Origin: an uncultured Bacillales bacterium | GTDB lineage: Bacteria > Bacillota_I > Bacilli_A > RFN20 > CAG-288 | Assembly (NCBI GenBank): GCA_937896065.1 | Contig: CALBLI010000031.1 | Coordinates: forward strand, 1 to 60,705 | Reading direction: 5' to 3' | DNA: 60,705 bases | Shown here: one piece after another, positions 1 to 42,581 of the stretch | Position numbering within the stretch: the first letter of the stretch is position 1 | Layout: each line of letters opens with the position of its first letter | Position numbers and translations under genes: made by a program | The notes under the pieces: generated by a model | Told to the model about the DNA's origin: nothing | Seen by the model: only the letters and a program-made list of their open reading frames with translations | Database searches by the model: none

Positions 1-211
1 TTAAAACTCGATAACCATGGGATTTTTTAAGAAATGGACTTCGGAAAATGAGATAGTTATTGACGCTTACATATATTCTACACCTTACAAACACTTTACC
101 TACTCCAAATAATATTGAATTTGATTATGCAGCTTTACTAAGATGGTCTAAGTCATTACCCGAAAAAATAAAAACTAAAAACAGCATCAACGTTACTGAC
201 ACTTATAATAG

Positions 212-3200
212 TTATTCGGCTTCTCTTCCTGCCTTATCATCCATTGTGTGTAATGGTAACAAATACTGCACTTCAGTATTACCACAATGCTTATAAATTA
301 CAGCCAATTCATCAGTTGCATCTTTACTTGCATATTCAACCCCCCGATAAATTGACTCAACACCTGTGTAGCCATGTGTACCATAACTATCCAATAATCC
401 AATACGGTTTCCATATAAAATACTTTTTGTATAATTACCATAAGTAAATAAACTAACATACTTATATACCATAAATCTATTACGCACATATAGGTTATTA
501 AGATTTTGATTTTGTTGAGTATCAATAAAGTATTGTTTCCAAATCTTTAATGGATGAGATGCACCCATTGTATTGTCCGTTGCAGACGCCGAATTAGTAT
601 ATTCATGAGCCGTACCTTTGTTTGCAAGACCAAATGCACCTGATGATAAAAAGTTGAATGCACCAATAATATCAATATATTTTGTATGAGTTGTCTTAGT
701 ACCATCAGCAGCTTCTGTTTCCCATGTATCAGTTAAGGCATCTTTATTACTATAGAAAGGACTAATACCAATAACTGAAGGAGCCATAACATCGTGTTGT
801 ACCACAGTATCTGTAACTGTACCACTATCATCAGTTACACTTACTGATATATCACCACTTTGTCTACAAGCAACAAATCCTAACCAATCAACACATGAAT
901 CTGAATTTATACGTGTTTTTGCACTATCTGCTCCAGTGTTAGGATTTACTTTAGAAGGTAAATAATAATTACGAAGCAAGAATGGAGAAGTGTCCCACAA
1001 ACCATTATTAAACTTTGTTTTATCAGCATTACCATAGCCATCATTATTAATAAGATCATGTTCTTGTTCATATGATGCAACTTTATTTAAATATGCTGCA
1101 TATAAGATTTCACCTTTTGAAACAAGTTTTTCTATTTCTTCTTTTCCTTCTGATGTAGTAGTATCCAAAGTAGACATGTCTATATTTCTTAATTCTTTGT
1201 TATAGAACATTGCTAAAGAATCAAAATATGTATCACCAAACGTTATTGGCATATTAGTTCCATGCCAGCCACCAGTTGAGGAACTCTGATCATAAAATCT
1301 TGTATAGTATGTAACTGGGAAATAAGCAGTATGTTTAGCAAGCATAATGGCTCTCTCATTTTCAGGGATATAATAGAAACGAGTTTGACCTTCTGTTATT
1401 GAAGAAGTATCAACTTCTGTATCTGGCCCATCAGCAAAACTTTCTATATCTTCATATTTGATACCATAAGTTGAAGTCTCAACACCTGTTGTTTCGCTTA
1501 CAGTATTATTCATATAGACGTTTCTTCCAATATACAGCTTATTTTCAACATATTGTCCATTAATTGTACCATCAGTGTTATCAGTTACCATTTGACCAGT
1601 CTTTGGATCACATGTATATTGAGTTACACCTGCTACAGTTGAAGCGTCTTTTAAGTAGACAGTTACAATAGGAGATAAACCACCAGCATGTTCAATTTTG
1701 AAATTTTGTTGTTCTTTAGTTAAATATGGAGTCACATATTTAAATCTAGTTTCATATAAAAACGAATATAGACGCAAGACAGCATTACTTAGTCTATTTG
1801 ATATCTTCATTGTTATTTGATTCCAAATAGGAGTAGATTCATTAGTATCTCTAATCAAAAATGGAATCAATGTTTTAATAGTTACACCTATACCTGGTTT
1901 TAAATCATCTAAAATCTCTTTACCATCCTCATCAAGTGATACTTCAGCATAATTGATAGCTAATGTATTACCAGCCCAAGCAGTACCATTTGTAAGATTA
2001 GCAAATTTTCTTGAATAAGTTGTACCAGCTGCTGGATACATGTAACTTCTTAACTTATCATTAGTGAAAAACTTATCACTTGTTGCATTTTGCATGTAAT
2101 TACTTGCACTTCCTAAGAAAAGAAGTTTAACATTTCTACAAGTTATATCAGCTTCTGTACTCATAGAATCATAACCGGCTTGCAAGATAAATTTATTACG
2201 GTAAATTTCATATAATGTAGCATCATCAAACTTATATTGATCATTATTATTGAAATAATATGGAACACCCATGTTATCAACAGCATTTGAATCAACAGTA
2301 GTAATATAATCAGATAAATTGTTTCCTTTTTGAGTAAAGATACCATTAGAAGAATCGTTACCTCTAATAATGAAGAAATTTCTACCTGAAATAGTAATTA
2401 ATTCTTTAGCTTTATCTCCAATAGTTGCATTAAGTCCAGTAAGACCACTATTATTGAAAATGAATTCATCATATAAAGCACCTACACTTGAATCACTTAT
2501 GTAATCAACTAGTGCATAAGTTTTAGTTGTACTAAGACTTTTCGTCGATATATCAGCAGACATATCATCTATAAGAACAACATAACTATGTCTTCTTATG
2601 TTATGTAATAATTCAACATTTGTTGTAGAAAGTTCACCATTTACACTCTTAATAAATAATTGAGCAAATTGAGGATGAGCTTCATAGAAAGGATCATTTT
2701 GGATAGAAGCTGTTGCATTTGTCCCAATCAACTTAAATCCATTAGTATCTTCTTCAACCATCTTTGGAGTTCCAGAATAGAAAGACATCATTGACTTATC
2801 ACTTAATCCAGTAGTGTTAACTTCAGTTGAATTCAAAAGGGAATAGAATGAATTTTCTTTATAATAGATATAGTTTTTATGATATCTTAGAATATCTGTT
2901 GCAAGACCAATGTAATTAACGTAAGATTTTATCTCCTTCGTTTTATCAAAGTCATCAGCAATGCCCGCAAAATAAATAAAGTTATCACTAAACGTTAAGG
3001 AACCATCACTGCACTTATATGCTAAATCATATCCACCATTTTCAACTGTGAATGGATAGAAATAAATATCTTCCAAAACAGCTTTGTCTTCATTATAATT
3101 ATTAGACTTCAAATACAGATTTAAATTGACAACCGAAATTAAACGTTTCTTATTATTTTCATCTTTAAGCACTTCATATAACTTATCGTTGTCGTTAGAA

Positions 3201-6200
3201 TTGTTTTGTAGAGAGTAATACAAATCTACAAGGCTCTTAATATTCTCATTAGAAGGGGTATTATAACTATCTATATTAAGATATATCAATCCCATGTCAT
3301 CTTCAGCTTCTACACTACTCATAGTCCAAGCAGGTTTAGCAAATAAGAATTTATTCGATGCAGCATCAATATTATCAAAAGGCATGAGTCTATTTATATT
3401 AGCTTGTGCTTCATCTGAAGTATCATAACTAATGGTCCCATTAGCGGCATCAACCTGAAGCTTTAATACTCCACTCAAAGCTTCAATATATTCATCAACA
3501 GTTCCTAAATAAGTATTTCTAAAGGTTGAGATATCAAAAGCACTTGTTCCATCATATTTGTATGGAGCTTTTATAACATTTGATTTGAATTCTTCTTGTA
3601 AATCACTTTCAAGTGAAGAAGTATCAAGAAGCAATTGTTTCATATTCACATTGACATAATAATGTGGAGTCTCACCATTATTGGTGTTAACAGCATTTAC
3701 ACGGTTACTATTAAAGAAGTAATCATTATATGTCTTTTCATCTTGCGAGCCATAAATTTTTCCATTAAATGATATTGAAGCTGAAGCATCTAATTGGAAA
3801 TAATAAACGATACTAGAACCAAGACTATTATTTATATAGTATGCAAAATGTTTAACCTCATCTAAACCATATTTGGTTTTTTGATTTAAAATATTTGAAA
3901 TAGCATCATTACCAGCAGTGAGCCTTCCAATGTAAGCAAGTTCAAGATTTTTAGAATTTATTGTAGTATTTTCATTTATGGAATCTTTAGCAAAATCTTG
4001 TCTTAAAACAGCAACTACTCTTCCTTCAGAGCCATCATAAACTTTCGTAGCTAAAACTTTAGCAGTATTAGTGTAATATGCGCCTAAACTATCACCAGTA
4101 GTATCACTTACTTTAGCATTATAAATGATTGTATCTTCACCTTTGTATAACTTGATAGATACATTATATTCATCACCTTCAACAATTTTTTTATTATCAG
4201 TATCATATTTCCAACCTTTTCGTTTATAACTAAAGAATTCAGTTGGACCTTCACTTGCATTATCTGATAAATAAATATATGAAGTGTATCTAATGGTCTG
4301 AAGTGTTGAGTTAGATGTCTGCAAACACTGATATATCTCACCAGCCTTTTTGACATCATTATTCATACCATCTTTTAAATTAGTAGATAAGAAATGATCA
4401 ACATCACCTAAATAGAATCCGATGAGTTTATAATCATCATCACTTGTGAAACAATAAACAAATTGATTTTTATTTCTTTGTTCAGTGATAGTATCATTTG
4501 ATAAAGTATCTAAGTATTCACCAGATGTTCCTAAGAATATTCTTTGAAGAGTTGAATTCTCATCAATAATAGCTAGAGGATCATCTTCAGCATATTCTTT
4601 TAGATTCTCATTATAAATAAAGTTAATAGTTGATCCACGATATTTATCAACAGTATCTTTACCAAGATTTAAGAAGTCATTATATGTTCCTAAAAATAGA
4701 TATTCAATAGACTTTGTTTGATAATTTTTAGTAGCAATAAAGCGTGAATATTTGGTATTTGTTGTATGCACTGTTCCATCACTATTGAAAACAAAATCAA
4801 CGCACTTACTCTTATAATTTTCTCTTAACTTATCAGCTTTTTCTCCGCCTGCAATAAGTGTTTTTATAAAATAAGCAGCACCTGTTACACCATTAGCCTC
4901 ATCATCTCCATTATAAAGATAATCTAAGGTTATACTATCTGAGCTATCAGTAAAACTCTTGTAACATGTTACAAAATTAGAATCTGAGTAACTCTCTTCA
5001 GGATCACCATTATCTGTAAAATAATTGGGATCTTCACCATATAACTTGCTTACAATGTTCTTAGAAGTTTCTAAATAGATAGCCGTCAAATTCTTAACAT
5101 TAGCAATATTTTTTGAATCAACAAAAATATTTTCTTTAGCAGTATGATTTATAGTGGCCTCACCTTGTTTTTCTTCACCAACTTTGTATGGCATAGCAAG
5201 ATAAAACTTATCAATCTTATAATATGGTCTATCTTTATATAATTTACTACCATCATCTTCTACTGGTAAATCTTCACTATCATCAATCTTGAGCTTATTT
5301 ATTCTTTGACGTGAATAGTAAGTTCTAGCAAAACTGATAGGCGTACCTATATACATAAAGTATGGATATAGAGTCGATTTTTGATTTTCTTGTTCTGAAA
5401 TTAAACCACTACCATAATCATCAGCAGTACTCGAAAATGCCATGATACTATTTTTAATTTTCAAAATATCAGTAGCATAAGTAAGAGCTTCATTCAAACC
5501 TTTATAGATAGTAATAGTTCTTGAAGTATTATTTTTAGAATAATAAAGTCGTCTAACATATTCCTCCCATGGAGTATATGAGCTACCTTTTACTTCATTT
5601 AAATATGACAAAACAGTATATGAAGAAGCAGTTGCAAATGAACGATGATTCATATTAGCATGTGTTCTTCCATCAAATCTCATATGGCTAGAATATCCAG
5701 CAAATGGATCAGCTGCTTTATCATATTCATAGGTCATACTATCAATATTTAAAGCCATAATAATTTCATTTTTAATGACAGCTAAATCCTGAACATCAAC
5801 AAAAGTATCAAAATAACTTAATGAATCTGCATAATAAACGATTATTTTATCACTGCCTGCTACACCATTTGCACCGACAGTTGTTCTAGTATTTAAAAAT
5901 GAATTCTCATCAATGAAATTAATTGAATTTGGAATATAATATTTAGCTGCATAAGTTACATTTTCAAAAGCACCATTATTAGCAGAATCATTGACAATAG
6001 CAGTTACTCTTCTTATTTTGATTCCATCATAATAGAAATAAGGAATATAAACTTCATTAGCTAATAGATTTGTTGTCGTATATTCTCTATTCATAAAGCC
6101 AGCAAAGCCGATCTCATTGACACTATCTAATGTGGTTGATTCATCAACTGTTGACATACCATTATCGACAATATGAGCTTTAAGTGGGTTCCCATCTTCA

Positions 6201-9200
6201 TCTTTCAATGTGAAATTGAATAATTCACTATATGAAGATGCTGTAGAGTTACCAGCTAAATAAGTTGTAAATGCATAGAAGGTAGTAGGATCATCATAGT
6301 TACCAGTAATAGAAATTGGTGAATAATCTCCATCAAGATAATAAGAACCATTTATGACATAAACTGTTCTCAAATATGGCTTATAGGTTTTGTCATCCAT
6401 TTTGTAAGTATATTTCGTGGATAAATCCCTATTAAAATTAACATTCACAGCATCAGCTTCAGTTGAACCTGGTTGGCGTTTTTTAAAGCTTCCACCATCA
6501 CTAATTGTTTTGACAATATTTGGAAGTTTAATCTTGGTTCCACGATCTCCACCATTGTTTTCAAGATTACCATAAACATCATAAACAGTATTACCTGTTA
6601 AAGTCCAACTATCATTGTTATCTAAAACAATTTGATAATAACCATAATTAGTAGAAGCATTCAATTTATATTCACGCACTAAAAAGTCAGATAAAGTATT
6701 ATCTGTTAACTTGACAATAGCATCCCATAAATTTTTCATACCGGTTTTATCAGCATCATTTTTATAGAAATCTAAAGCAATATTACTTATATTGATAACT
6801 TCAGTGCTTAAAGGATCAATACCTGAATTAGGATCAGTTGATACATTTCCATTAATGACTGGTTTCCAAACTTTATTATCACCATAGGTTGTATTTCCAC
6901 CAGGAATTGGATCTTTAGGAGCTTCAATTGAATCACCTAAAGCAACATTTTCTCTTTTAGCAACTTTAGTAGTTGAAATAGTTGTTCCCGTATTTGTATT
7001 CTTTTCTTGAGTCACATATGTGAATTGAATAGTGAATTCTCTAGGTGTATAAACTGCAACAAAAGAAGAATCAGCTGTCTTCAAATATTCAGGAATTTCT
7101 TCACCTGGTTTATAAATAACAAGAGTTTGTTCATCTTTCCAACCAACGAATTCATATAATCTTAAATACAATTTGTAATTGTTATTTATATTACCTGCAG
7201 TCAAATTAAAATCAGTAAATGATTTGACAGTATAACTATCTTTATATTTGACATTGCTTGTTGATTCTACTGTGTCAACTGTAATAGCATTGTTTTCGTA
7301 TTTTAAGATATTATATTTATAAGTGATTGTATATTCATCACCAACATATTGAGCAATAGCGATAACATCGCATGTTTGATTGAATGATATTTCATTCATA
7401 TCAGTAATAAGTGCATCAGCTGGTAAAGTATTATTTCGGTAATTGTCCAAATTAAATTTATCAGCTTTATAATATTTCCAGCCTGAAAATCTGAAACCTT
7501 GTTTGGTTGGATTTCCCATTTTTGAATATGCTGCGTTATAGCTTACATTGATAACATATGGATTAGAATTATTATCTGGTAAGTAAGTAATAATGTAATT
7601 TAAAGCTTTCACTTGAGCATATAAATAAATGCCGTCAGTGTTATTAGTAGATGAATCAATATCAACAGCATTAGGATTAGTTAAAATGGTATTGGTAGTA
7701 ATAACATTTCCATAATTATCTCTCCAATAATCAAATCGATAGCCTAATTCTTTAAGTTTATTATCAACATATGTTTTAAAGACAGTACCATATCCGTTTG
7801 ATGAAATATTATATGCTTCACCAAAATAGGTTACGACATATTTTTCACTCTTATCATCATTGTATCCAAGAAGTGATTGTTGATCATTTGTTCTAATAAA
7901 TAGACGATATTTTAAAGGTTCAAATTCAGCATATAATACATAATCAACAACACCATTTTTAGCAGTATTGGCATTTGAAATGTTCCATTTTGTTAAAGCA
8001 ATACCATCTGCTTTACCAGTATCAGTCAAATAATATTTTTTAGTGCTTCCATCAGCATCTTTATAATAGTAATAATATGATTTGAATTTCTTACCTTCTC
8101 TAATAGGAGGTAAAGCTAAATTAAAATCAGCATTACCAACTACACTTTGAACAGTTGGTAGTCCTTCATTATCTGCAATATAAGAAATATTGAAGAAATC
8201 ATTGATTGTTGATCTTATATAGATAATAACAACGTTATTATCAGGATTTTCTTTATCATAAACTTTATTTTTATCAGCTTCTTCTTTTTCATGAACAACT
8301 GGATCATAAATAAATGCATCGCCTTCTTTAACAACTGATCCGTTTGAATATGTAAAAACTGGTATCAAAGCTTGTGACATATTAAGACCAGCATTAGTAT
8401 AAATCTCATCTTTAGTAAGCCAAGTTCTAGAATTACCAACAGATGTTAGAAGTTCACCATAAGCATTTCTATTGGGTAAAGTGAAATCAGTATTCTTACC
8501 ATCCTTAACATATCTGAAAGTAACTTTGTATTCTTTTCTGACCCATTTAGCATATAAAACGATGTCTCTTTCATATGGATAACAATTAGCATTGACTGTA
8601 GGAACACTAGGATTTGGTAAGATATCATCTTTAAAATTAGTGCCTGCTTGACAATCGCTTGTAGTATACCAGCCATCAAAATAATAACCAGTACGATTAG
8701 GAGCAGTTTCTAAATCAACATTTTGATTATAAATGACATTAGATATCTTATTTAACATACCTTCAACTTTGAAAGCATAGGTAATCTTATAATTATTGTT
8801 TTTATAAACAGGATAGATATCCAAAGAATAAACTAATTCTTCATCAACTGTAGTCGATACAAATTGATCGATGAGAGAGTCACTTGTAATCAAATTTTTA
8901 CCATCTAATGACCAACCTAAAAAAGTATATCCAGTAAGTGATGGTGGATATACTATTAAACCAGTTTGATTTGTTGCTTGAGGAATTTTACCACCATATG
9001 TTCCACTAACTGTTGTAAGTATTTCAATAGTTTCATCAACATTTTGTTTGCCTAATTCATTATTATGATATTTGATAGTAACATTTATTGCTTCATATCT
9101 AGCTGAGTAGACAATTGAAGTAGAACCTAAAAATTTATTCCCTTTTTCAAGTTTGACACCATCTGATGAATACCAACCTGTAAATATGTAGCCACTCTTC

Positions 9201-12200
9201 TTTGGTGAAACAAGTGGCATTGGTATTTCTTCACCAATTGTAATATCAAATGAGGTAAATTCGTCACCATTTTCAGGTAAGAATGTAACAGTATTTGTTG
9301 GTTTAGAATACTCCGCTTTGAAATTTAAAGCTTTAGTAGTATATTGACTATAAATTGTGTTTGAAGCAATTATTGAACCGTTAAGTGACCAGCCCAAAAA
9401 GACATAACCACCTTCAATTGTTGGATTTATAGTTGGTAAGTTATATGGTTTTCCAAATGTTTGAGTGAGTTCTCTATTACCATTTAAAGTTCCACCATTA
9501 GCATCAAAAATACCAGTTGTAGTTAAAGCTACAGTTTGCATATAAACAACATAATTAGAGCAAGAACCATCACTCGTAAGCTTCTTACTAGCATCAGAAA
9601 ATTTGCTTGAAGATTCGATAGTGACTCTATTGCCATTTACATCATACATGTAAAAGCCGGCAAAGTTATATCCGCTTTTTACTAAATTATCAGTGTTGAT
9701 ATTATAAAATTGACCAGTAGAAGTTGCAGTGAATTTTTGATCTCCTATTCTCTCAATTGTACCAATTGAATCAGGATCAACTTCAAATCTCAAAGTATAT
9801 TCTTTAAGTCTAGTAGATAAAGTAAAAACAGTATCGCCCATTATCTTATCTAATGATGAGAATTTGTTATCACTTTTCCAATAGATTTCATAATCCTTTG
9901 CATTAATATTAAGACCTGGTGCAGGAAGCGTATAATCAGATGTTGAAGGAGCCGCAACTGAAGAACCAGTTTTAACTGAAACTGTGCTTATAACAGCACC
10001 ATCAGCATTTTTAAATGTGACTTTATTGGTACCAGTAGTATAAGCAGTAAGAGTGCGATAAATACTTGCTGGAAGAAGATAATGTTCAGCATTAACTTCT
10101 TGCTCAAAAGCATAGTGACCTGCTACTTCAACCGTTCCAAAATCATTATAAGCAATCTTATTATTATTTAATTTTAACAATAATGTTGGATAAGCATTAT
10201 TGCTAAAAACAAACTTAAGAGTATTGCTATCAACTCTTGTGGCAGTACAAGTAACACCTCCACCGACTACAAAGGTTCCACCAAATTCTAAATTCTTTAA
10301 ATAAAATCCACTAGTTTCATAATTCTTTAGATTTTCTTCAACTTCATTTCCACCTTCAGGGCGAATAGCAACTTTATCACCTTTAATTTCATAAGTTGTG
10401 TTGACAACCTTGGCAATAACATTATTGATAAAATCTAATGTATAACTCTTTTTAGTGATAGTGAAGGTGGCTTTAAAAGTCTTAGTTAAACCTTCTTGAG
10501 TACCATCCTGTAATTTATAACTAGCATAAGAATAATAAGTTCCAGGTTCAGTAGGTTTACTAGAGCCCAAAGCTTTCATATTAGAATCGTAATATGCATA
10601 CGTTAAATCAGTTGCACTTTGAGGATAGTTAGTTAAAACAGGGTAATTACCAGTACTAGCATTACCTGTCCATTCAAAAGTAGTATTTTTGAAATTAGCA
10701 TTGCTTTCTGAATCAACATTTTTAGGTTCAATGATAAGATAAGCATTGATAGCTTTATATCTTTCTTCATTAGTTACGTAAGACATACCCGTTGATTGAT
10801 CAATTTTTTTAGTAAAGAATCTAACTTTAACAATATATTTGCCAACCTCAGTAGGTCTTACATTTTCATCTTGAGCATTCAATTGATATTGCATGCCATT
10901 GGAATCAAAACCATAATACTCATATTTGACAGCAATATCATTTTCAGAATAAAGCCCTGAGACTTCAATACTTTTTCCATTACCATCCCAAATAGTGGTT
11001 GTATTTTTAACAGTAAAAGTAAAAAGTTCATCATCTTCAATAGCCCTACCATAGATAACTCTATTGCCGGTCAATCCTTTCAAAGTAGATACAGGTATAC
11101 TATATCCACTATCGGTATACCAACCAACAAATCTATGACTATCATCAAGATTAGGATCAAGTAAGTTCAAACTTTCTTCAATTGTGTAGGTTCTTGAATT
11201 TATTTGACCATGTTCAACATTAAAGTCAACGTTATAAATTATAGGGACATATTCAACGATAATATCTCCACCTGTTGCACCTTCACCAACCAAAAATCCA
11301 TCTTCAGTTAAAATGTCGTTATATTTTTCATCTCTAACAACAATTTCATATCCTTCTCTTTCAACTAAATTTGATTTTTTGATGTAATTACCGAAATTTG
11401 TGTTAATAATATTTTGAGAATAGACAACTTCATTGCCATCATTATCCAAGTCATATTTTGGAATTCTAGTAATAGAATTATCTGAATTCAAACTTTCTTC
11501 ATAATGTCTAACAATGTATTTGACTGTATATTGCAAAGCACCAGCTTGCAAAATTGAAATAGTGGCTGTCTTTTTATTATTTGTTCTATCAGCATCAGCT
11601 GAATTAACAATTGTGTAATTGCTTGCATCAAGTCCAGAAGCTGGATCAACTGAGAAAACAGCTCTAACTGTTTTAGAACCAACATTTATGATGGCGTTAG
11701 CATCTAAATTATCACCAGTTGTACTTGAAACTAATTCATATCTATAGGTGACTTTATCAGGAACATTAGTAGGTTCAATTATATGAATTTTACCATCTGA
11801 TGGATAAGAAGTGTCCTTGAAGACAACATCTTTGATGTCAATTTCAGCTTTAGCAATAATGATTTTGCTACTCAAAGTTTTATAAGCAACCATGGTGTCT
11901 GATTTGACAATTTTACAAGTTGCAACATATTCACCAGCAGCAACTTGAACATTATTGCTATAAATAGCAGTAAAACCAGAAGGAATATCTTCTGGATTTT
12001 GTAATTTTACAGTGTATTGTGAGCCAGTATATGTGACATTCATATCAGGAAATACTAGTCTATCTAGTTTTTCACTCAATGTCTCATCAATACTTGTTGC
12101 GTCTTTAGTAATTGTGAGGTAAGCAATTTTAACAACTTCTTCATATCTTTCAGATGCTGATGTTCCGCTTGTTTTTTTAGAAAAATGAGCAACAATACGA

Positions 12201-12451
12201 TGTGAGCCAAGTAAAATAGCACCATTATTTTCATAAGTGACAGAGATACCTGATGGAACATTTTTAGCAAAAATTGAATGTGGTTTGCCATCATATGAAA
12301 CACTAGCATCCTCAAATACAACACCAGATAAATCTAGTTTTTTAACTTCCGTTGATTTAGATTCATTATCTGTGAGTTTACAACTTGAGATTGAAAAAGT
12401 GAAAAGTGAAGCGAGTAAAGCTATATGAATAAGTTTATTTTTTCTAGCCAT
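212..12451 (-). CDS. Giant surface lipoprotein, 4079 aa: lipobox signal peptide, MBG-like modules, Listeria-Bacteroides (Flg_new-type) repeats, then ~2400 aa of unassigned C-terminal sequence
   Basis: Single uninterrupted 12.2-kb ORF. GGAGGG at 12458-12463 lies 6 nt upstream of the ATG at 12451. The N-terminus MARKNKLIHIALLASLFTFSISSC has a basic n-region, a hydrophobic core and a lipobox Cys. Residues ~40-300 repeat the pattern YDGKxH...P.G..VTY.NN (MBG-like). Residues ~300-1650 carry at least 7 GY.F.GW(Y/S/K) signatures (HRFVGWY, YVFLGWS, YIFTGWY, YTFLGWS, YYFDGWY, FRFSGWK, YEFVGWK). No C-terminal TM segment or LPXTG. Confidence 0.9.
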   Translation of the reverse strand: MARKNKLIHIALLASLFTFSISSCKLTDNESKSTEVKKLDLSGVVFEDASVSYDGKPHSIFAKNVPSGISVTYENNGAILLGSHRIVAHFSKKTSGTSASERYEEVVKIAYLTITKDATSIDETLSEKLDRLVFPDMNVTYTGSQYTVKLQNPEDIPSGFTAIYSNNVQVAAGEYVATCKIVKSDTMVAYKTLSSKIIIAKAEIDIKDVVFKDTSYPSDGKIHIIEPTNVPDKVTYRYELVSSTTGDNLDANAIINVGSKTVRAVFSVDPASGLDASNYTIVNSADADRTNNKKTATISILQAGALQYTVKYIVRHYEESLNSDNSITRIPKYDLDNDGNEVVYSQNIINTNFGNYIKKSNLVEREGYEIVVRDEKYNDILTEDGFLVGEGATGGDIIVEYVPIIYNVDFNVEHGQINSRTYTIEESLNLLDPNLDDSHRFVGWYTDSGYSIPVSTLKGLTGNRVIYGRAIEDDELFTFTVKNTTTIWDGNGKSIEVSGLYSENDIAVKYEYYGFDSNGMQYQLNAQDENVRPTEVGKYIVKVRFFTKKIDQSTGMSYVTNEERYKAINAYLIIEPKNVDSESNANFKNTTFEWTGNASTGNYPVLTNYPQSATDLTYAYYDSNMKALGSSKPTEPGTYYSYASYKLQDGTQEGLTKTFKATFTITKKSYTLDFINNVIAKVVNTTYEIKGDKVAIRPEGGNEVEENLKNYETSGFYLKNLEFGGTFVVGGGVTCTATRVDSNTLKFVFSNNAYPTLLLKLNNNKIAYNDFGTVEVAGHYAFEQEVNAEHYLLPASIYRTLTAYTTGTNKVTFKNADGAVISTVSVKTGSSVAAPSTSDYTLPAPGLNINAKDYEIYWKSDNKFSSLDKIMGDTVFTLSTRLKEYTLRFEVDPDSIGTIERIGDQKFTATSTGQFYNINTDNLVKSGYNFAGFYMYDVNGNRVTIESSSKFSDASKKLTSDGSCSNYVVYMQTVALTTTGIFDANGGTLNGNRELTQTFGKPYNLPTINPTIEGGYVFLGWSLNGSIIASNTIYSQYTTKALNFKAEYSKPTNTVTFLPENGDEFTSFDITIGEEIPMPLVSPKKSGYIFTGWYSSDGVKLEKGNKFLGSTSIVYSARYEAINVTIKYHNNELGKQNVDETIEILTTVSGTYGGKIPQATNQTGLIVYPPSLTGYTFLGWSLDGKNLITSDSLIDQFVSTTVDEELVYSLDIYPVYKNNNYKITYAFKVEGMLNKISNVIYNQNVDLETAPNRTGYYFDGWYTTSDCQAGTNFKDDILPNPSVPTVNANCYPYERDIVLYAKWVRKEYKVTFRYVKDGKNTDFTLPNRNAYGELLTSVGNSRTWLTKDEIYTNAGLNMSQALIPVFTYSNGSVVKEGDAFIYDPVVHEKEEADKNKVYDKENPDNNVVIIYIRSTINDFFNISYIADNEGLPTVQSVVGNADFNLALPPIREGKKFKSYYYYYKDADGSTKKYYLTDTGKADGIALTKWNISNANTAKNGVVDYVLYAEFEPLKYRLFIRTNDQQSLLGYNDDKSEKYVVTYFGEAYNISSNGYGTVFKTYVDNKLKELGYRFDYWRDNYGNVITTNTILTNPNAVDIDSSTNNTDGIYLYAQVKALNYIITYLPDNNSNPYVINVSYNAAYSKMGNPTKQGFRFSGWKYYKADKFNLDNYRNNTLPADALITDMNEISFNQTCDVIAIAQYVGDEYTITYKYNILKYENNAITVDTVESTSNVKYKDSYTVKSFTDFNLTAGNINNNYKLYLRLYEFVGWKDEQTLVIYKPGEEIPEYLKTADSSFVAVYTPREFTIQFTYVTQEKNTNTGTTISTTKVAKRENVALGDSIEAPKDPIPGGNTTYGDNKVWKPVINGNVSTDPNSGIDPLSTEVINISNIALDFYKNDADKTGMKNLWDAIVKLTDNTLSDFLVREYKLNASTNYGYYQIVLDNNDSWTLTGNTVYDVYGNLENNGGDRGTKIKLPNIVKTISDGGSFKKRQPGSTEADAVNVNFNRDLSTKYTYKMDDKTYKPYLRTVYVINGSYYLDGDYSPISITGNYDDPTTFYAFTTYLAGNSTASSYSELFNFTLKDEDGNPLKAHIVDNGMSTVDESTTLDSVNEIGFAGFMNREYTTTNLLANEVYIPYFYYDGIKIRRVTAIVNDSANNGAFENVTYAAKYYIPNSINFIDENSFLNTRTTVGANGVAGSDKIIVYYADSLSYFDTFVDVQDLAVIKNEIIMALNIDSMTYEYDKAADPFAGYSSHMRFDGRTHANMNHRSFATASSYTVLSYLNEVKGSSYTPWEEYVRRLYYSKNNTSRTITIYKGLNEALTYATDILKIKNSIMAFSSTADDYGSGLISEQENQKSTLYPYFMYIGTPISFARTYYSRQRINKLKIDDSEDLPVEDDGSKLYKDRPYYKIDKFYLAMPYKVGEEKQGEATINHTAKENIFVDSKNIANVKNLTAIYLETSKNIVSKLYGEDPNYFTDNGDPEESYSDSNFVTCYKSFTDSSDSITLDYLYNGDDEANGVTGAAYFIKTLIAGGEKADKLRENYKSKCVDFVFNSDGTVHTTNTKYSRFIATKNYQTKSIEYLFLGTYNDFLNLGKDTVDKYRGSTINFIYNENLKEYAEDDPLAIIDENSTLQRIFLGTSGEYLDTLSNDTITEQRNKNQFVYCFTSDDDYKLIGFYLGDVDHFLSTNLKDGMNNDVKKAGEIYQCLQTSNSTLQTIRYTSYIYLSDNASEGPTEFFSYKRKGWKYDTDNKKIVEGDEYNVSIKLYKGEDTIIYNAKVSDTTGDSLGAYYTNTAKVLATKVYDGSEGRVVAVLRQDFAKDSINENTTINSKNLELAYIGRLTAGNDAISNILNQKTKYGLDEVKHFAYYINNSLGSSIVYYFQLDASASISFNGKIYGSQDEKTYNDYFFNSNRVNAVNTNNGETPHYYVNVNMKQLLLDTSSLESDLQEEFKSNVIKAPYKYDGTSAFDISTFRNTYLGTVDEYIEALSGVLKLQVDAANGTISYDTSDEAQANINRLMPFDNIDAASNKFLFAKPAWTMSSVEAEDDMGLIYLNIDSYNTPSNENIKSLVDLYYSLQNNSNDNDKLYEVLKDENNKKRLISVVNLNLYLKSNNYNEDKAVLEDIYFYPFTVENGGYDLAYKCSDGSLTFSDNFIYFAGIADDFDKTKEIKSYVNYIGLATDILRYHKNYIYYKENSFYSLLNSTEVNTTGLSDKSMMSFYSGTPKMVEEDTNGFKLIGTNATASIQNDPFYEAHPQFAQLFIKSVNGELSTTNVELLHNIRRHSYVVLIDDMSADISTKSLSTTKTYALVDYISDSSVGALYDEFIFNNSGLTGLNATIGDKAKELITISGRNFFIIRGNDSSNGIFTQKGNNLSDYITTVDSNAVDNMGVPYYFNNNDQYKFDDATLYEIYRNKFILQAGYDSMSTEADITCRNVKLLFLGSASNYMQNATSDKFFTNDKLRSYMYPAAGTTYSRKFANLTNGTAWAGNTLAINYAEVSLDEDGKEILDDLKPGIGVTIKTLIPFLIRDTNESTPIWNQITMKISNRLSNAVLRLYSFLYETRFKYVTPYLTKEQQNFKIEHAGGLSPIVTVYLKDASTVAGVTQYTCDPKTGQMVTDNTDGTINGQYVENKLYIGRNVYMNNTVSETTGVETSTYGIKYEDIESFADGPDTEVDTSSITEGQTRFYYIPENERAIMLAKHTAYFPVTYYTRFYDQSSSTGGWHGTNMPITFGDTYFDSLAMFYNKELRNIDMSTLDTTTSEGKEEIEKLVSKGEILYAAYLNKVASYEQEHDLINNDGYGNADKTKFNNGLWDTSPFLLRNYYLPSKVNPNTGADSAKTRINSDSCVDWLGFVACRQSGDISVSVTDDSGTVTDTVVQHDVMAPSVIGISPFYSNKDALTDTWETEAADGTKTTHTKYIDIIGAFNFLSSGAFGLANKGTAHEYTNSASATDNTMGASHPLKIWKQYFIDTQQNQNLNNLYVRNRFMVYKYVSLFTYGNYTKSILYGNRIGLLDSYGTHGYTGVESIYRGVEYASKDATDELAVIYKHCGNTEVQYLLPLHTMDDKAGREAE

Positions 12452-12493
12452 AGTATACCCTCCTAAAAAAGACGCAATAATTGCCTATGAAAT

Positions 12494-12522
12494 ATTATAT
12501 ATATATTACATATATATGTCAA
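12494..12522 (-). promoter_or_regulatory. Consensus sigma-A-type promoter of the 4079-aa lipoprotein gene
   Basis: On the coding (minus) strand: TTGACA (12522-12517), 17-nt spacer tatatatgtaatatata, TATAAT (12499-12494), about 40 nt upstream of the ATG. Confidence 0.65.
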
Positions 12523-12760
12523 ATAATTAGCCACTACTAAGTGAAGTAATTGCATGCAAACTTCAATTTAACAATAATAGTTTGCATTTATTAAAAATAT
12601 TATGAAAAAACTTATTCATATTATAAAAGTTGCTATAGTTTCTAAAGCTTTATGAAAATAAAATATTAACTCATTTAGAGTAAAAATTTTAAAATCAAAG
12701 TTTAAAGATAATTTTATGTTTAGAAATTTTAAAAATAAATTCAATCAACTTTAATTTTAC

Positions 12761-13258
12761 TTAAATTATTTTTTTATTTTCATCAATCTTATTTTCTCTA
12801 AATTTATTGGTCAAAAATAAATGAATAAATAAAATAACAAGACTAATATATGGCGTCAATAAGGCATAGACATCGCATTTAACACCTGATGCTATTTTAG
12901 AAGAATAATAAATGCCTACAAATTCAAAAATTATAATACAAACAAGAATAGAAGAACTTATTAAAAATCTTCTCAATTTTTTTTGATAATTTGATATAAG
13001 AACAAATAGTGAAAAAGAAAAAAGAATAGCAAATAAAGCTAAAGCTACTATAAACATTGAAACTGAATAATATAAAGAAGTTCCAGTGTCTTCTAAGTAA
13101 TTAAAGGCAGAGTAACCAGAAACTAATGTTCTTTTATCCTGAATAATTGTCACATAATATGGAGCAAAATAAAGGAGCGTTGAAAGTAATGAAAATATAG
13201 ATAGCATGATATAAGTTATATTCTCTTTCAATTTAAGATTAGCAATGATTTTGTTCAT
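12761..13258 (-). CDS. Small polytopic membrane protein, unknown function (165 aa)
   Basis: ORF with several long hydrophobic segments (YIMLSIFSLLSTLLYFAPYYV, MFIVALALFAILFSFSLFVLI, ILVCIIIFEFVGIYY, LLTPYISLVILFIHLFL). I recognise no family. Confidence 0.6.
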   Translation of the reverse strand: MNKIIANLKLKENITYIMLSIFSLLSTLLYFAPYYVTIIQDKRTLVSGYSAFNYLEDTGTSLYYSVSMFIVALALFAILFSFSLFVLISNYQKKLRRFLISSSILVCIIIFEFVGIYYSSKIASGVKCDVYALLTPYISLVILFIHLFLTNKFRENKIDENKKII

Positions 13259-16343: not shown

Positions 16344-17963
16344 ATGCATATGCATAAAGAAGTATTAGCTAAACTTAAAGAAGCTTGTCTTGCTATCTTG
16401 CCAATCGTGACTGTGATGATTATTGTCAACTTTGCAATACCTGGTTTTTCAGTTGAGGCCGATGCTTCAAAATTTGGACCAGTTTTAACTTCTCTTTTAA
16501 TATCAGTTGTACCACTAATTCTTGGAACCACTTTGTTTTCACTTGGTGTTGAAAAATCAATTGCTAAAATTGGTGAAATAGTCGGTGCTACTTTGACAAA
16601 AAGAAAATCAATAATTCTACTTCTTATAATTGGAGGATTACTTGGTTTTTTAGCAACTCTTGCTGAACCTGATTTGACAGTTTTAGCTTCAAGAATTGCA
16701 CCTAATGGTCCAGATTGGACTTTGATTGTTGTTGCTGCAATCGGAGTTGGAATCTTCATGGTTTTAGCTATTTTAAGAGTTGTCTTTGATAAGAGAATCA
16801 AATACTGGTTAACAATTGGTTATGGTCTAATATTCACATTAGGTTGTTTAGCTGATCAAAGCTTTTTCTCAATTGCTTTTGATGCTGGTGGTGTTACAAC
16901 TGGTGTTGTAACAGTGCCTTTTATTTTAGCAATGGGTATGGCTGTTGCACGAACTATGGGTGGATCAAATGCTGAAGATGATTCATTTGGCTATTCTGGT
17001 TTATGCTCAATGGGAACTGTATTACTGGTTATCATCTATTCACTCATTTTAAAAAATACTGGTGCTATAGGTTCAATTCAAAACAATCTTGTAGGTAAAT
17101 TTAATGTTGCAAGCGGCACTGATGAAATGATGCATCAATTGAATAGTTATCCGGCAATAAGTGAGCTATATGTTGAAAACTTAGTTTCATCAATTAAAGA
17201 TGTTGCAATATCGATGGCACCATTAATTGCGTTTTTCATTATATTCAACTTTTTCTTTAAAAATTCAAAAAAAGTTTTGATTTCTATTTTTGTTGGCTTT
17301 GCTTATACTTTTGTCGGTTTGGTTTTATTCTTCTTAGGTGCTGAATCTGGATTCATTCCTTTTGCAAGTCAATTTGGTCAGTATTTTGCAAAGCATGAAT
17401 CTTCTCTTTTTATATTTATATTAGTTGCTTTCTTATTCGGTTTTATCTCAATGCTTGCTGAACCTGCAGTTAAAGTTTTAGCAACTAATGTCTCAGAAGT
17501 ATCAGGTGGTGTTATTTCTGAACTTATCATTTACGTAGCTCTTTGTTTATCAACAGCAATTGCAGTCTCTTTAAATATATTCAGAATCAATTTTAATATT
17601 GAACTTGTCTATTTTGTTATTCCATTATTTATATTAGCAATCTCACTATCATATTTAACACCTGAAATATATGTTGGTATTGCAATTGATGCTGCTGGTG
17701 TTGCAACTGGAACAATGGCGTCTTGTTTTTTCCTTCCTATGATGATTGGTTTCACTGCTGTGAAATATAGTGATTCTTCCAGTTATGGTGAAATGCTCAT
17801 GAGAAATGGTTTTGGCGTTGTTGGTATTATGGCAATTCTTCCTATTATTGTTTGTGAACTTGTCGGTATCCTTGCAGTAATTAAAACTAAGATCAACTAT
17901 AATAAAGCAAGAAGTAAAATTAAAGAAATTGATGACTCGCAAGTCATTCATTTGCCACTTTAA
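16344..17963 (+). CDS. DUF1538-family integral membrane protein (internally duplicated), 539 aa
   Basis: About 12 hydrophobic helices. The two halves share the motif LAEPDLTVLASRIA (N-half) and LAEPAVKVLATNVS (C-half), which is typical of tandem DUF1538 domains. A P-II-like gene follows, as in other genomes. Confidence 0.75.
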   Translation: MHMHKEVLAKLKEACLAILPIVTVMIIVNFAIPGFSVEADASKFGPVLTSLLISVVPLILGTTLFSLGVEKSIAKIGEIVGATLTKRKSIILLLIIGGLLGFLATLAEPDLTVLASRIAPNGPDWTLIVVAAIGVGIFMVLAILRVVFDKRIKYWLTIGYGLIFTLGCLADQSFFSIAFDAGGVTTGVVTVPFILAMGMAVARTMGGSNAEDDSFGYSGLCSMGTVLLVIIYSLILKNTGAIGSIQNNLVGKFNVASGTDEMMHQLNSYPAISELYVENLVSSIKDVAISMAPLIAFFIIFNFFFKNSKKVLISIFVGFAYTFVGLVLFFLGAESGFIPFASQFGQYFAKHESSLFIFILVAFLFGFISMLAEPAVKVLATNVSEVSGGVISELIIYVALCLSTAIAVSLNIFRINFNIELVYFVIPLFILAISLSYLTPEIYVGIAIDAAGVATGTMASCFFLPMMIGFTAVKYSDSSSYGEMLMRNGFGVVGIMAILPIIVCELVGILAVIKTKINYNKARSKIKEIDDSQVIHLPL

Positions 17964-17972
17964 GGAGAAATT

Positions 17973-18803
17973 ATGTTTAGAAGAAAGAAAAGCATTCTCT
18001 TAAATGAATTATCAAAAAATTTAAAAAAGAATAAAGATGAACATCTTCCTCCTTTTGAAAAGAGAGAAAAAGTTCATTCTCTTCTTTTGCTTGTAACAAT
18101 TGTAAGTCGAAATCAAGGTGCTTACTTTACTGATACTTTTTCAAAACATGGTGCCAGCTTATCAATCAGCATGTTTGCTCATTCAATGCCACCAGCTGAT
18201 ATCATATCGCTTCTTGGAAATGAATCGACAACTAAAAAAGATTTAGTTTTGACTATTGTTAGAAAAAATGAAGTCAAGGAATATCTTGACATCATAAAAA
18301 AAAGATTTAGCATATCCAAAGCAAGCAAAGGTATCGCATTTACTCTTCCTGTTTCATCTGTTTCAGGAATTGTAGTTTATAAATATTTATCCGATTACAA
18401 CAAGGAGGAACGAACGATGTCAAAAGAAGAAAATAAAGAAGAAATAATTCAAAATAAAGAAAATGATTTTGAACTTATAATGGCTATAGTCAATAAAGGA
18501 TTGACTGATTTAGTGATGGAGGCTGCTAGAAAAAAAGGAGCACGTGGTGGAACAATTTCCGTTGCACGTGGAACTGGTAATAGTGAACTTGCTAAATATT
18601 ATGGTGTTGTCATTCAACCTGAAAAAGAAATTGTTTATATCGTTGTTAGAAAAGATATCAAAGATGATGTCATGAAAGCTATCTATGATGAAGCCGGTTT
18701 AGATAGCAAAGGTCAAGGAATCATTATATCTTTACCAATAAGCGACACTGTCGGTCTTGAAAAAGAAGTTGAAAACACAAGTGTTACTGATAATAAAGAA
18801 TAA
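17973..18803 (+). CDS. Fused tandem P-II-like (GlnB-superfamily) signal-transduction protein, 276 aa
   Basis: The C-terminal domain FELIMAIVNKGLTDLVMEAARKKGARGGTISVARGTGNS...EKEIVYIVVRKDIKDDVMKAIYDEAG matches the P-II beta-alpha-beta pattern. Residues ~36-140 (LLLLVTIVSRNQGAYFTDTFSKHGASLSIS...DLVLTIVRKNEVKEYLDIIKKRF) look like a second, degenerate copy. The gene starts 9 nt after the DUF1538 gene. Confidence 0.7.
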   Translation: MFRRKKSILLNELSKNLKKNKDEHLPPFEKREKVHSLLLLVTIVSRNQGAYFTDTFSKHGASLSISMFAHSMPPADIISLLGNESTTKKDLVLTIVRKNEVKEYLDIIKKRFSISKASKGIAFTLPVSSVSGIVVYKYLSDYNKEERTMSKEENKEEIIQNKENDFELIMAIVNKGLTDLVMEAARKKGARGGTISVARGTGNSELAKYYGVVIQPEKEIVYIVVRKDIKDDVMKAIYDEAGLDSKGQGIIISLPISDTVGLEKEVENTSVTDNKE

Positions 18804-34692: not shown

Positions 34693-34723
34693 TATTAATT
34701 TCCTCCACAAATCATTTTATTTA

Positions 34724-42538: not shown

Positions 42539-42581
42539 AGGCATAATCCTCCCTTATAAAAACTAGTAAGGTTATAAAATC

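Follow-up and report, generated by a model that had tools for sequence, protein, structure and literature searches.

The locus and its giant lipoproteins

The window analysed here is the whole 60,705-nucleotide stretch, from a gut-associated bacterium with a small genome, which belongs to the Bacilli (RFN20/CAG-288 group) and lies close to Candidatus Enterosoma. Its neighbourhood is chromosomal housekeeping (recF, gyrB, gyrA, serS). Three giant lipoproteins take up 26 kb of the window, and in sister contigs a fourth adjoins. The protein considered here is encoded by a single unbroken ORF of 4079 aa with an N-terminal lipobox, ISSC.

212..12451, minus strand: complete lipoprotein ORF (stop codon 212-214), from the ORF itself, orthologues and near-identical copies
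12380..12451, minus strand: signal peptide with lipobox (MARKNKLIHIALLASLFTFSISS followed by C, Cys24)
12459..12464, minus strand: ribosome-binding site AGGAGG, 7 nt before the ATG, read from the sequence
12494..12522, minus strand: sigma-70-type promoter of putative function, TTGACA-17-TATAAT with a TA-rich spacer, 12/12 consensus match

I-S-S-C fits the lipobox pattern [LVI][ASTVI][GAS]C, and no hydrophobic segment was found in the protein besides the signal peptide. In L001 the P0002 orthologue is preceded by the same promoter element; to judge from the sequence, the lipoprotein is probably strongly expressed. The organism uses the standard code (TGG only, zero in-frame TGA), and the gene contains neither DNA-level repeats nor obvious phase-variation tracts.

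Seven full-length, near-identical copies of the protein are present in other assemblies, and orthologues of 4042 and 4189 aa represent two other species-level clusters with synteny kept. Relatives are named 'InlB B-repeat-containing protein [Candidatus Enterosoma sp.]' by NCBI. The family comprises three 90%-identity clusters only among 5.8 billion proteins, one locus in GTDB species representatives and zero loci in JGI metagenomes, phages and plasmids. The next gene downstream in the sister contigs encodes a convergent giant lipoprotein, which in L005 is the paralogue n5. In L001, an 87-aa ORF downstream resembles an IS66-type transposase remnant. A second paralogue, the 2606-aa lipoprotein of the window, has genuine LRR_5 (E=6e-19) and matches 4FS7 (E=1e-9).

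The N-terminal part of the 4079-aa protein consists of Flg_new-type (GW) repeats (Pfam E=1e-24). The sequence-only reading had placed their end near aa 1650; this proved too early, as they run to about aa 1850 through two further units.

6902..7501, minus strand: last two Flg_new-type (GW) repeats, aa 1651-1850, from BLASTP, hhalign, regex and reading

These are QGFRFSGWKY (aa 1652; QGFRFSGW by regex) and YEFVGWKDE (aa 1766; YEFVGW by reading). Residues 1652-1713 match 1255-1314 by BLASTP (E=0.009), and an hhalign self match pairs 1653-1741 with 1766-1843. The N-terminal 1850 aa belong with the giants carrying the InlB B-repeat or Listeria-Bacteroides repeat (Flg_new, PF09479), but that name covers the stalk only, aa 1880-4079 being without Flg_new signal. 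This leaves roughly 2200 aa, from aa ~1880 to 4079 (window 215-6814), truly without assignment.

The unassigned distal region

For aa ~1880 to 4079, sequence searches of Pfam, NCBIfam and the PDB gave no match that reached threshold, and over aa 1651-4079 no Pfam or NCBIfam family reached its cut-off, the sole trace being a sub-threshold LRR_5. The PDB search of the distal region returned no match with either a single sequence or a profile, and an exhaustive HMM search with aa 2900-4079 against 1.84 billion representative proteins returned the family itself only. The original judgement that the region fits no family thus stands, as does that on HExxH, which was sought in the region and not found. 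The further statement that the region has not been described as a family is qualified by the likeness, at motif level only, of its recurring motif to a BspA-type LRR_5 element (below). The region is indeed rich in Tyr, Asn, Asp and Thr (32-38% in every segment); this richness is not specific to it, since single-residue frequencies are alike in both halves of the protein.

5807..6640, minus strand: conserved junction module, aa 1938-2215 (RTVYVINGSYYLDGDYSPI ... NEIGFAGFMN ... PYFYYDGIKIRRVTAIV ... YYIPNSINFIDENSF ... IIVYYADSLSYFD), from conservation and sharing with n5
5888..6136, minus strand: two or three BspA/LRR_5-like units, below threshold, aa 2106-2188, from Pfam and hhalign
215..4504, minus strand: fast-diverging distal region, aa 2650-4079, without relatives outside the family

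The junction module is the best-conserved part of the region across orthologues and is shared with n5 (BLASTP E=5e-16; hhalign probability 98.7%, E=4e-16). Within it, aa 2106-2188 give a Pfam LRR_5 score of 17 bits (E=0.0056), short of the 27.7-bit cut-off. The single BspA-like LRR unit reported earlier, YIPNSINFIDENSF, lies inside this stretch, where the count is two or three. Aligned by hhalign with genuine LRR_5 of the 2606-aa paralogue, the stretch gave E=0.17 with three sequences and E=0.0086, 0.022 and 0.32 with four, the reversed control giving 0.065.

Towards the C-terminus, identity to P0002 and P0003 drops from ~55/40% to ~30/20%, and over the last ~200 aa the three orthologues can hardly be aligned. 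The same trend is seen among strains of the P0003 cluster, whose amino-acid diversity is <=1.5% over its aa 1-2600 and rises to 8% at its aa 3401-3600. In the window's own cluster, unlike that of P0003, a strain-level gradient is not clear; between the window and L003/L004, 7/9 non-synonymous differences fall in aa 3451-4079, the dN/dS counts being tiny (14 differences). Conserved blocks persist deep in the region: IPYYFN and FILQAGYDS near aa 3395-3430 (FILQAGYDS in P0001 and P0002 only) and LRLYS[FY]LYE near aa 3555. A conserved C-x-D-W-x-G-x-x-A-C element is common to P0001 and P0002.

A recurring [FY]-L-G motif and its predicted structure

A short motif recurs in the distal region.

4667..4696, minus strand: motif copy 1, FLGTYNDFLN, aa 2586-2595; crop model: strand E142-147, Gly149, helix H151-155
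4508..4537, minus strand: motif copy 2, FLGTSGEYLD, aa 2639-2648; crop model: strand E195-200, Gly202, helix H204-209
4385..4414, minus strand: motif copy 3, YLGDVDHFLS, aa 2680-2689; crop model: strand E237-242, Gly243, helix H245-253
3482..3511, minus strand: motif copy 4, YLGTVDEYIE, aa 2981-2990; motif scan
2090..2119, minus strand: motif copy 5, FLGSASNYMQ, aa 3445-3454; motif scan
4217..5089, minus strand: about six strand-strand-helix units of 37-56 aa, starts 37-76 aa apart, aa 2455-2745; unit alignment and AlphaFold crop
4385..4897, minus strand: only part with useful model confidence, aa 2519-2689; block means pLDDT 47-84, >68 outside aa 2549-2568

The pattern [FY][LI]G[TSD]...[FY][LIM] is observed five times against 0.01 expected (2000 shuffles) and is absent from the N-terminal 1650 aa. 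A leave-one-out motif HMM recovers most copies, with scores no lower than the top score among 90 shuffled C-termini. The recurrence noticed by eye is therefore above chance, and its copies lie where they had been placed (aa 2586/nt 4696, 2639/4537, 2680/4414, 2981/3511, 2840/3934 and 3445/2119). They are kept at aligned positions in both orthologues, and the motif HMM independently picked up MIFLGTVKDY, the P0002 counterpart of copy 5. The paralogue n5 has about a dozen copies of the motif in its C-terminal half (13 by eye, 4 by scans). Strong copies number only about five, with LAYIGRL (aa 2840) and others weak. The motif clusters mainly within some 300 aa instead of running through all 2400.

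Copies 1 to 3 are in tandem, spaced 53 and 41 aa, and the second strand of each unit in aa 2455-2745 ends in h-[YF]-L-[GDE]-[TSD]. Copy 4 closes a ~110-aa stretch faintly like aa 2498-2608 (hhalign E=0.024), which was the best off-diagonal self match; a leave-one-out HMM of the longer unit fails. A repeat unit of 40-55 aa is thus statistically not demonstrable. The broader idea of a degenerate solenoid or repeat fold keeps in its favour the recurrence of the short motif and the predicted run of strand-strand-helix units, but homology between units is not significant.

An AlphaFold crop of 306 aa (pLDDT 59, pTM 0.64, core 70-84) gave, at moderate confidence, a strand-strand-helix run over aa ~2490-2730 with each motif at a strand-Gly-helix junction. 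The best Foldseek matches of this crop, at E=2.1 in PDB and 0.92 in BFVD, do not reach E<=0.001. A 1171-aa tile was unusable (pLDDT 29.6), and usable structural information within aa 1880-4079 is confined to aa 2440-2745.

In sequence, the motif resembles the closing element of BspA-type LRR_5 arrays and could be a diverged form of it. BspA-type LRR proteins (LRR_5, PF13306; 4GT6, 4FS7, 4H09, PcpA 4CP6, TpLRR 6MLX) are host-associated bacterial surface proteins, often with Flg_new, an architecture also that of the 2606-aa lipoprotein. Their arrays end in h-x-Y-x-G-[ST]-xxx-W-xx-I, as IEYSGSRSQWNAI in 4GT6 (residues 362-376 of 394) and as VNYLGTVASWNNI in the 2606-aa paralogue, where this W-form comes after genuine LRR_5 units. 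The likeness extends to the LRR_5-like units at aa 2106-2188, but in the 4079-aa protein the motif has Y or F in place of the aromatic W, its hydrophobic residues ahead of the Gly are one position out of register, and it stands in tandem every 41-53 aa rather than once per array. The resemblance is at motif level and passed no statistical or fold test; it is not diagnostic, because the motif profile failed to retrieve 4GT6 from the PDB and weakly matched 40-aa designed PQQ-type propeller blades (3.5-4.8 bits per repeat).

Candidate roles of the distal half

The whole region could be a very degenerate BspA-type (LRR_5) array with the motif as a multiplied terminal unit, in which case both its fold and its kind of adhesin domain would be known ones that sequence profiles no longer recognise. 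The sub-threshold LRR_5 score, the IG..AF and IP.sI..I...SF-like strings of the junction module with their weak hhalign matches to three genuine LRR units, the position of the canonical motif at array ends and the intermediate forms VVYFNGTENEYRNYF and AIIYEGKLDDYQSKVY in n5 all point this way. We nevertheless consider it unlikely: LRR_5 is undetected by Pfam in P0002, P0003 and n5, profiles of aa 1880-3050 and 2900-4079 match no LRR protein in the PDB even at E<=10, and the crop units have two strands and one or two helices per 37-56 aa, not the 23-aa LRR_5 turn. In addition, the hydrophobic residues leading up to the Gly follow h-x-x-h-[FY]-L-G, against the canonical L-x-x-h-x-Y-x-G, and the 43 PDB matches listed by Foldseek include neither an LRR protein nor a propeller. 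This last result also bears on a divergent PQQ/BamB or Kelch beta-propeller at aa ~2450-2750, with blades of 40-55 aa and the motif as blade hairpin (h-Y-h-G-S-x-D-x-x-L-Y). The sole PDB matches of the motif profile are designed PQQ-type propellers (the 'Bagel' designs 8PRJ and 8PRS, and their parent 'cell surface protein' 8PRA), whose 40-aa blades read TIYVGSNDHYLYAINPNG and carry a like string, h-Y-h-G-[ST]-x-D-x-Y-L; in both, three consecutive hydrophobic residues precede the Gly, and the spacing of the tandem copies is blade-like. A propeller is very improbable even so, as the per-blade match is at noise level (i-Evalue 240-630), the low overall E-value arising because eight identical designed repeats add up. 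Helices are predicted directly after the Gly in all three copies (pLDDT 70-84), and Pfam propeller families gave zero matches.

Two further possibilities concern function. In one, the protein would act as a polymorphic toxin or deliver another effector, its conserved stalk bearing a C-terminal toxin or enzyme domain that varies; this would account for the differences between orthologues in the last ~200 aa, and the C-x-D-W-x-G-x-x-A-C element hints at a discrete terminal domain. We give it very little weight: no Pfam toxin, nuclease, deaminase or peptidase domain was found in any orthologue at E<=1, neither a small immunity-like gene downstream nor a pre-toxin demarcation motif was seen, and divergence forms a gradient across ~1400 aa, not a sharp module swap. 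The distal half might instead have no specific ligand and serve as a bulky, rapidly drifting spacer or coat, whether as an antigenic decoy or as a shield of the S-layer kind, with the motif as a mere folding element. The crowding of giant lipoproteins at the locus, the strong putative expression signals, and the extreme lineage restriction with fast divergence are in keeping with a shield. On the other side, three diverged species keep the ORF unbroken at lengths of about 4000-4200 aa, and conserved blocks lie deep in the region; these argue for constraint on structure, with which a shield role is still compatible, and we regard this reading as unlikely.

We propose, with about even confidence, that aa ~1880-4079 form the membrane-distal, ligand-contacting half of a giant, adhesin-like surface lipoprotein that is lineage-restricted and fast-evolving. 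The N-terminal Cys would be lipidated and hold the protein in the membrane, and MBG/Flg_new (InlB B-repeat-type) beta domains totalling about 1850 aa would extend from it as a conserved stalk. The junction module, bearing two or three degenerate BspA-type LRR units, would be followed by an alpha/beta region in which one element recurs: a predicted beta-strand ending in [FY]-L-G, then a Ser/Thr-capped helix with an aromatic residue five positions past the Gly. This strand-Gly-helix element may be related by divergence to the Y-x-G-[ST]-xxx-W-xx-I closer of BspA-type LRR arrays, or resemble it by convergence. The remaining ~1400 aa would constitute a lineage-specific head, changing fastest between species and strains, as expected for a surface exposed to ligands from the host, partner microbes, phages or the immune system. 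The earlier description of the region as cell-distal and presumably functional is reasonable because the lipid anchor is N-terminal, and it fits the divergence gradient, but it is still inference, and a ligand or adhesion role is suggested by architecture.

Large variable surface lipoproteins and adhesins are known from Mollicutes and other reduced-genome, host-associated Bacillota; one paper reportedly discusses BspA-like proteins in a vaginal mycoplasma. Like these lipoproteins, the 4079-aa protein is lipid-anchored, very large and lineage-specific, has a fast-evolving exposed end and takes a big share of a small genome. It differs in the standard code of its organism and in the lack of DNA-level repeats and obvious phase-variation tracts inside its gene, and no sequence relationship to them was found.

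A giant lipoprotein gene and its surroundings

The 4079-aa protein is encoded by a single ORF of 4079 codons (window 212..12451, reverse strand) with 27 TGG codons and no in-frame TGA; GC content is about 30%. Its neighbours are housekeeping genes (pseudouridine synthase, DUF1538/P-II, serS, gyrA, gyrB and recF). The N-terminus comprises a signal peptide and a lipobox, MARKNKLIHIALLASLFTFS-ISSC (…FSISS/C, Cys24), which at the sequence level matches the pattern [LVI][ASTVI][GAS]C of bacterial lipoproteins (Lgt/LspA substrates), and no second hydrophobic segment lies beyond the signal peptide. Seven near-identical copies are present in other assemblies. Orthologues from two other species-level clusters share the gene order: P0002 (4042 aa, 37% identity over the query region, lipobox TVSSC) and P0003 (4189 aa, 30%, MLTSC). 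Members of the P0003 cluster carry the NCBI label 'InlB B-repeat-containing protein [Candidatus Enterosoma sp.]'. Candidatus Enterosoma has been placed in GTDB order RFN20, family CAG-288, and the type genome described alongside the genus is only 1.4 Mbp (PMC8035907).

The ORF is preceded by AGGAGG and by TTGACA-17-TATAAT (window 12522..12494, reverse strand), a 12/12 match to the sigma-70 consensus. The promoter spacer (window 12494-12522, reverse strand) is nearly all TA repeats (TATATATGTAATATATA). In L001, the contig carrying the P0002 gene, the promoter upstream of that gene (at 10001) is kept, with a near-identical spacer. In other bacteria, TA tracts in the spacer of a promoter can cause phase variation; no spacer variation was seen between the window and L003, a sister contig of the same species, which are identical here.

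AGG has been reported to be read as Met in Ca. Enterosoma (PMC13092985). The codon is rare in the ORFs of the window (21/19,093 codons) and only three fall in the large ORF (aa 469, 2008 and 2843). In SerRS (window 18874-20196, reverse strand) AGG at aa 164 sits on a conserved Arg, GS[R]F, aligned to an Arg of PDB 2DQ3; the AGG of GyrA falls on what we take, from the E. coli GyrA sequence, to be the conserved Arg of YTEA[R]L. On these alignments AGG seems to stay Arg in this genome. Because AGG occupies a conserved Arg and the large ORF has just these three, corruption of its translation by AGG-to-Met reassignment would be negligible. One AGG lies within LAYIG[R]L, a weak copy of the motif; at this position P0002 has Leu.

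Other genes and features in and around the window
Window 16344-18803, forward strand: DUF1538 membrane protein, then a 276-aa protein with a P-II domain as its C-terminal half; in each of the three species this pair lies beside the giant gene
Window 28726-34710, reverse strand: 1994-aa lipoprotein with Flg_new repeats; its true start (MRNNKKSKLF...) is probably downstream of the listed TTG
Window 34724-42544, reverse strand: 2606-aa lipoprotein in tandem with the preceding one, also with Flg_new repeats; a genuine array of BspA-type LRR_5 repeats forms its C-terminal end and carries three 'Y-x-G-T-xxx-W' terminal units
Window 48488-48563, reverse strand: single tRNA-Lys (anticodon CTT) between the phosphoketolase and groEL genes
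Window 1-50: the last ~50 nt differ from L003 22400-22528, the contigs being otherwise identical, which suggests an assembly break or insertion junction
L003 22529-27301, reverse strand: another giant Flg_new gene, convergent and directly 3' of the 4079-aa gene; a 1590-aa C-terminal portion is visible in this contig of the window's own species and has no similarity to the distal region
L005/L006 23032-32570, reverse strand: the convergent giant in the P0003 species (n5, 3461 aa), with a junction module and motif in common with the 4079-aa protein
L001 22293-22556: 87-aa ORF (MGRKNWLFANT...) downstream of the orthologue, presumably resembling a C-terminal remnant of an IS66-type transposase

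Organisation and divergence of the outer half

The stalk is assigned to the Flg_new / Listeria-Bacteroides repeat (PF09479), which scores 86.8 bits against a Pfam cut-off of 27 over aa 1-1650. The GW repeats had been read as stopping at about aa 1650; Flg_new-type units in fact run on to about aa 1850 (QGFRFSGW at 1652, YEFVGW at 1766), where they were seen by internal similarity, and no Flg_new signal is found in aa 1880-4079. The remainder falls into distinct stretches.

Parts of the outer half of the 4079-aa protein (encoded on the reverse strand)
aa 1651-1850: final Flg_new repeats
aa 1938-2215: strongly conserved junction module with LRR_5-like strings and the C-terminal end IIVYYADSLSYFD
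aa ~2455-2745: run of some six units, each 37-56 aa long
aa 2750-4079: single motif copies (2981, 3445) and conserved blocks here and there, without recognisable organisation
Gly at aa 2588, 2641, 2682, 2983 and 3447: strong motif copies

The junction module is common to the 4079-aa protein and n5, whose gene lies convergent and directly downstream of the P0003 orthologue (BLASTP E=5e-16; hhalign probability 98.7%, E=4e-16). Each unit of aa ~2455-2745 opens with a strand (NFVTCYK, INFIYN and QFVYCF are examples); a short loop rich in Asp, Ser and Thr leads to a second strand, which ends in h-[FY]-L-G and is followed by a helix.

Copies of the motif [FY]-L-G-[TSD] lie exactly where the sequence-only reading had placed them, and their recurrence was borne out by several lines of evidence. 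The extended pattern [FY][LI]G[TSD]xxx[FY][LIM] has five matches in aa 1651-4079, where 2000 shuffles gave an expectation of 0.01, and none in the N-terminal 1650 aa; as this pattern was fixed after the data had been seen, two less circular tests were added. Motif copies are kept at aligned positions in both orthologues. A 23-position motif HMM built without a copy and its orthologues usually re-finds that copy, with a score at or above the best of 90 shuffled C-termini. Because copies are conserved in orthologues and re-found when left out, we regard the recurrence in these sequences as real, single copies being weak and strong ones numbering only about five. The richness in Tyr, Asn, Asp and Thr, proposed as a trait of the region, is equal in the stalk.

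What recurs is the short motif, and the degenerate repeat fold proposed from it stands to that extent. In an hhalign self-comparison the off-diagonal matches are weak (E=0.024 for the best, which pairs aa 2898-3007 with 2498-2608), and every one is anchored on the motif; a unit HMM of ~55 positions re-found its own seeds and failed leave-one-out. We therefore treat the 40-55-aa 'repeat' as a reading of the structure rather than demonstrated homology. No DNA-level, tandem or DGR-like repeats were found inside the gene. Hydrophobic autocorrelation gave no usable periodicity for the region, and a genuine LRR control failed likewise.

Structure prediction was informative for one part. An AlphaFold tile of 1171 aa (aa 1880-3050, three-sequence alignment) was unusable (pLDDT 29.6, 0 residues above 50). 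For a 306-aa crop covering aa 2440-2745, again with the three species aligned, pLDDT rose to 59.4 and pTM was 0.64; the 120 residues at pLDDT 70-90 are essentially aa 2519-2689. At all three tandem motifs the modelled strand stops 1-2 residues before the Gly and a helix begins 2 residues after it.

Strand and helix pairs at the motifs (crop model)
E142-147 and H151-155
E195-200 and H204-209
E237-242 and H245-253

The Ser/Thr after the Gly, with the acidic residue 3-4 positions on, would form a helix N-cap in this model. Within a unit, one strand starts just 10-13 residues after the other, a spacing more suggestive of hairpins than of consecutive rungs of a solenoid.

Identity to the two orthologues is about 55/40% through the stalk to about aa 2650 and about 30/20% thereafter; the last ~200 aa are barely alignable. 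Within the P0003 cluster, strain-level amino-acid diversity is at most 1.5% over aa 1-2600 of that protein and 4-8% between its aa 2600 and 3800; the window's own cluster is too uniform for a trend to show. The window and two sister contigs differ at 14 nucleotides, nine of them nonsynonymous. Seven of these nine, with one synonymous change, lie in aa 3451-4079; the numbers are small, and the clustering at the tip is suggestive. A C-x-D-W-x-G-x-x-A-C string at aa ~3850-3865 (window ~857-902), SCVDWLGFVAC here and VCFDWVGMIAC in P0002, is kept in 2/3 orthologues amid the otherwise highly divergent tip; it may belong to a discrete domain at the terminus, as a loop closed by a disulfide.

Relatives and resemblances

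The claim that the region fits no known family held up: the Pfam, NCBIfam, PDB and large protein searches yielded members of its own family only. For the 4079-aa protein, Pfam and NCBIfam gave nothing at E<=1 beyond Flg_new and sub-threshold LRR_5, and Pfam likewise gave no further family at E<=1 for both orthologues and n5. Searching the PDB produced no match with the single sequence and 0 matches at E<=10 with profiles of the aa 1880-3050 and 2900-4079 alignments. A word-indexed search of 5.8 billion proteins recovered the three clusters and nothing else; exhaustive hmmsearch of 1.84 billion representatives with the aa 2900-4079 alignment recovered P0002 and a 188-aa fragment only, and among GTDB species, each represented by one genome, a scan recovered a single locus, a P0003-like MAG. 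JGI metagenome scans and tblastn against phage genomes and plasmids found no relatives. Foldseek with the aa 2440-2745 model found no fold match (best E 2.1 in the PDB and 0.92 in BFVD, TM <=0.22), the query being this moderately confident model (pLDDT 59) alone. The region is a true orphan at the sequence level, and at the fold level too for the one modelled part.

The single BspA-like LRR unit noted earlier is present, as part of a wider LRR_5 (PF13306) match confined to aa 2106-2188 that stays below the gathering threshold (17.0 bits, E=0.0056, against 27.7 bits). LRR_5 has no match at E<=1 in P0002, P0003 or n5. Two or three ~23-aa units of the form IP.sVt.IG..AF can be read (NEIGFAGF, RRVTAIV..GAFEN, YIPNSINFIDENSF), and hhalign places them against genuine units at E=0.0086-0.17, with a reversed control at 0.065. 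A genuine LRR_5 array is found in the 2606-aa paralogue (Pfam E=6e-19; PDB 4FS7 at 1e-9, plus 4H09, PcpA and TpLRR), in which the LRR units are followed by VNYLGTVASWNNI, VEYESTIENWAHI and ITINGTTSDYNQI. The array of the solved BspA-type protein 4GT6 closes with IEYSGSRSQWNAI (residues 362-376 of 394). The terminal unit h-x-Y-x-G-[ST]-xxx-W-xx-I, verified in 4GT6 and the paralogue, resembles the region's motif in its G-[ST] and an aromatic at +5 and differs in its upstream register, which is shifted in the region's copies. The n5 protein has a dozen or so copies, 13 by sequence reading, of which four were caught by scans. Since these grade from near-canonical (VVYFNGTENEYRNYF, AIIYEGKLDDYQSKVY) to the region's form (RYFFGTVEELL, FIYLGTLSELEADY), descent of the motif from an LRR_5 terminal unit is plausible. 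A motif profile (12 copies, three orthologues) did not retrieve 4GT6.

That profile matched designed PQQ-type propellers, in their 40-aa blades TIYVGSNDHYLYAINPNG. Each blade scores 3.5-4.8 bits, and the small overall E-value comes from there being eight identical repeats. In hydrophobic register, the propeller string fits the region (h-x-x-h-[FY]-L-G) better than does the LRR terminal unit (L-x-x-h-x-Y-x-G). Both leads, LRR terminal unit and PQQ blade, pass no test, and the motif alone is insufficient to decide the fold.

What the outer half may be

We propose that the protein would be a giant, lipid-anchored and probably strongly expressed surface protein, in which a conserved stalk of beta-domains would carry a lineage-specific, fast-evolving distal half. 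The distal half would open with the junction module and its degenerate BspA-like units and continue as a putative alpha/beta region built on the strand-Gly-helix element. This architecture, an anchored stalk with a fast-evolving distal half, is the best-supported reading. The analogy to surface proteins of the BspA type and with InlB repeats puts the chances at about even that the distal half is the binding end of an adhesin. More tentatively, aa ~2450-2750 could adopt an undescribed alpha/beta repeat fold of hairpin-plus-helix units with [FY]-L-G-[ST]-xx-[DE]-[FY]-L junctions, perhaps extending to much of aa 2200-4079 and to n5 in its C-terminal half; the fold would be confined to the giant lipoproteins that RFN20/CAG-288 gut Bacilli make and would act as a binding scaffold that diversifies rapidly.

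A fully degenerate LRR_5 array would accommodate the junction module and the graded n5 copies; no LRR-like unit is recognisable after aa 2215, the aa 2440-2745 model (pLDDT 59) has no Foldseek match to the curved parallel-beta solenoid of solved LRR_5 structures, nor is any LRR or propeller among its 43 Foldseek PDB matches, and we consider such an array unlikely. Rather less likely still is a non-specific coat or decoy. A closed PQQ/BamB-type ring of at least four tandem all-beta blades of ~40-50 aa, to which the register and the profile match point, is improbable: predicted helices follow the motifs, the Foldseek result and the per-blade scores speak against it, and the 4079-aa protein matches no Pfam propeller family. 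A polymorphic-toxin carrier (WapA/Rhs/CdiA-like) has the slimmest prospects, with no C-terminal toxin domain and no downstream immunity gene; the genes downstream of the ORF and its orthologues are the convergent giant or the transposase-like remnant. The gene was also rejected as a target of a diversity-generating retroelement: window 1-12800 has no direct repeat longer than 41 nt, and no RT is found among the sister-contig neighbours, where just ~0.3-1.5 kb lies 3' of the gene before the next one.

RFN20/CAG-288 bacteria are uncultured gut residents. Three giant lipoproteins take up 43% of the window, about 26 kb of 60.7 kb, so it is probably through them that the cell makes contact with its host or neighbours. 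In the largest of them, the outer half has relatives in three species-level clusters only and no recognisable fold. It is common for giant surface proteins of host-associated bacteria to have tips that evolve rapidly and cannot be assigned, and at present this is a well-documented orphan region rather than a mechanistic surprise. A new family covering the motif region of the 4079-aa protein and the C-terminal half of n5 would be justified. If the motif units turned out to represent a new repeat scaffold, or else an LRR of the BspA type that has been radically remodelled, the domain databases would gain a family, and adhesion and strain-level variation within RFN20/CAG-288 would become easier to approach.
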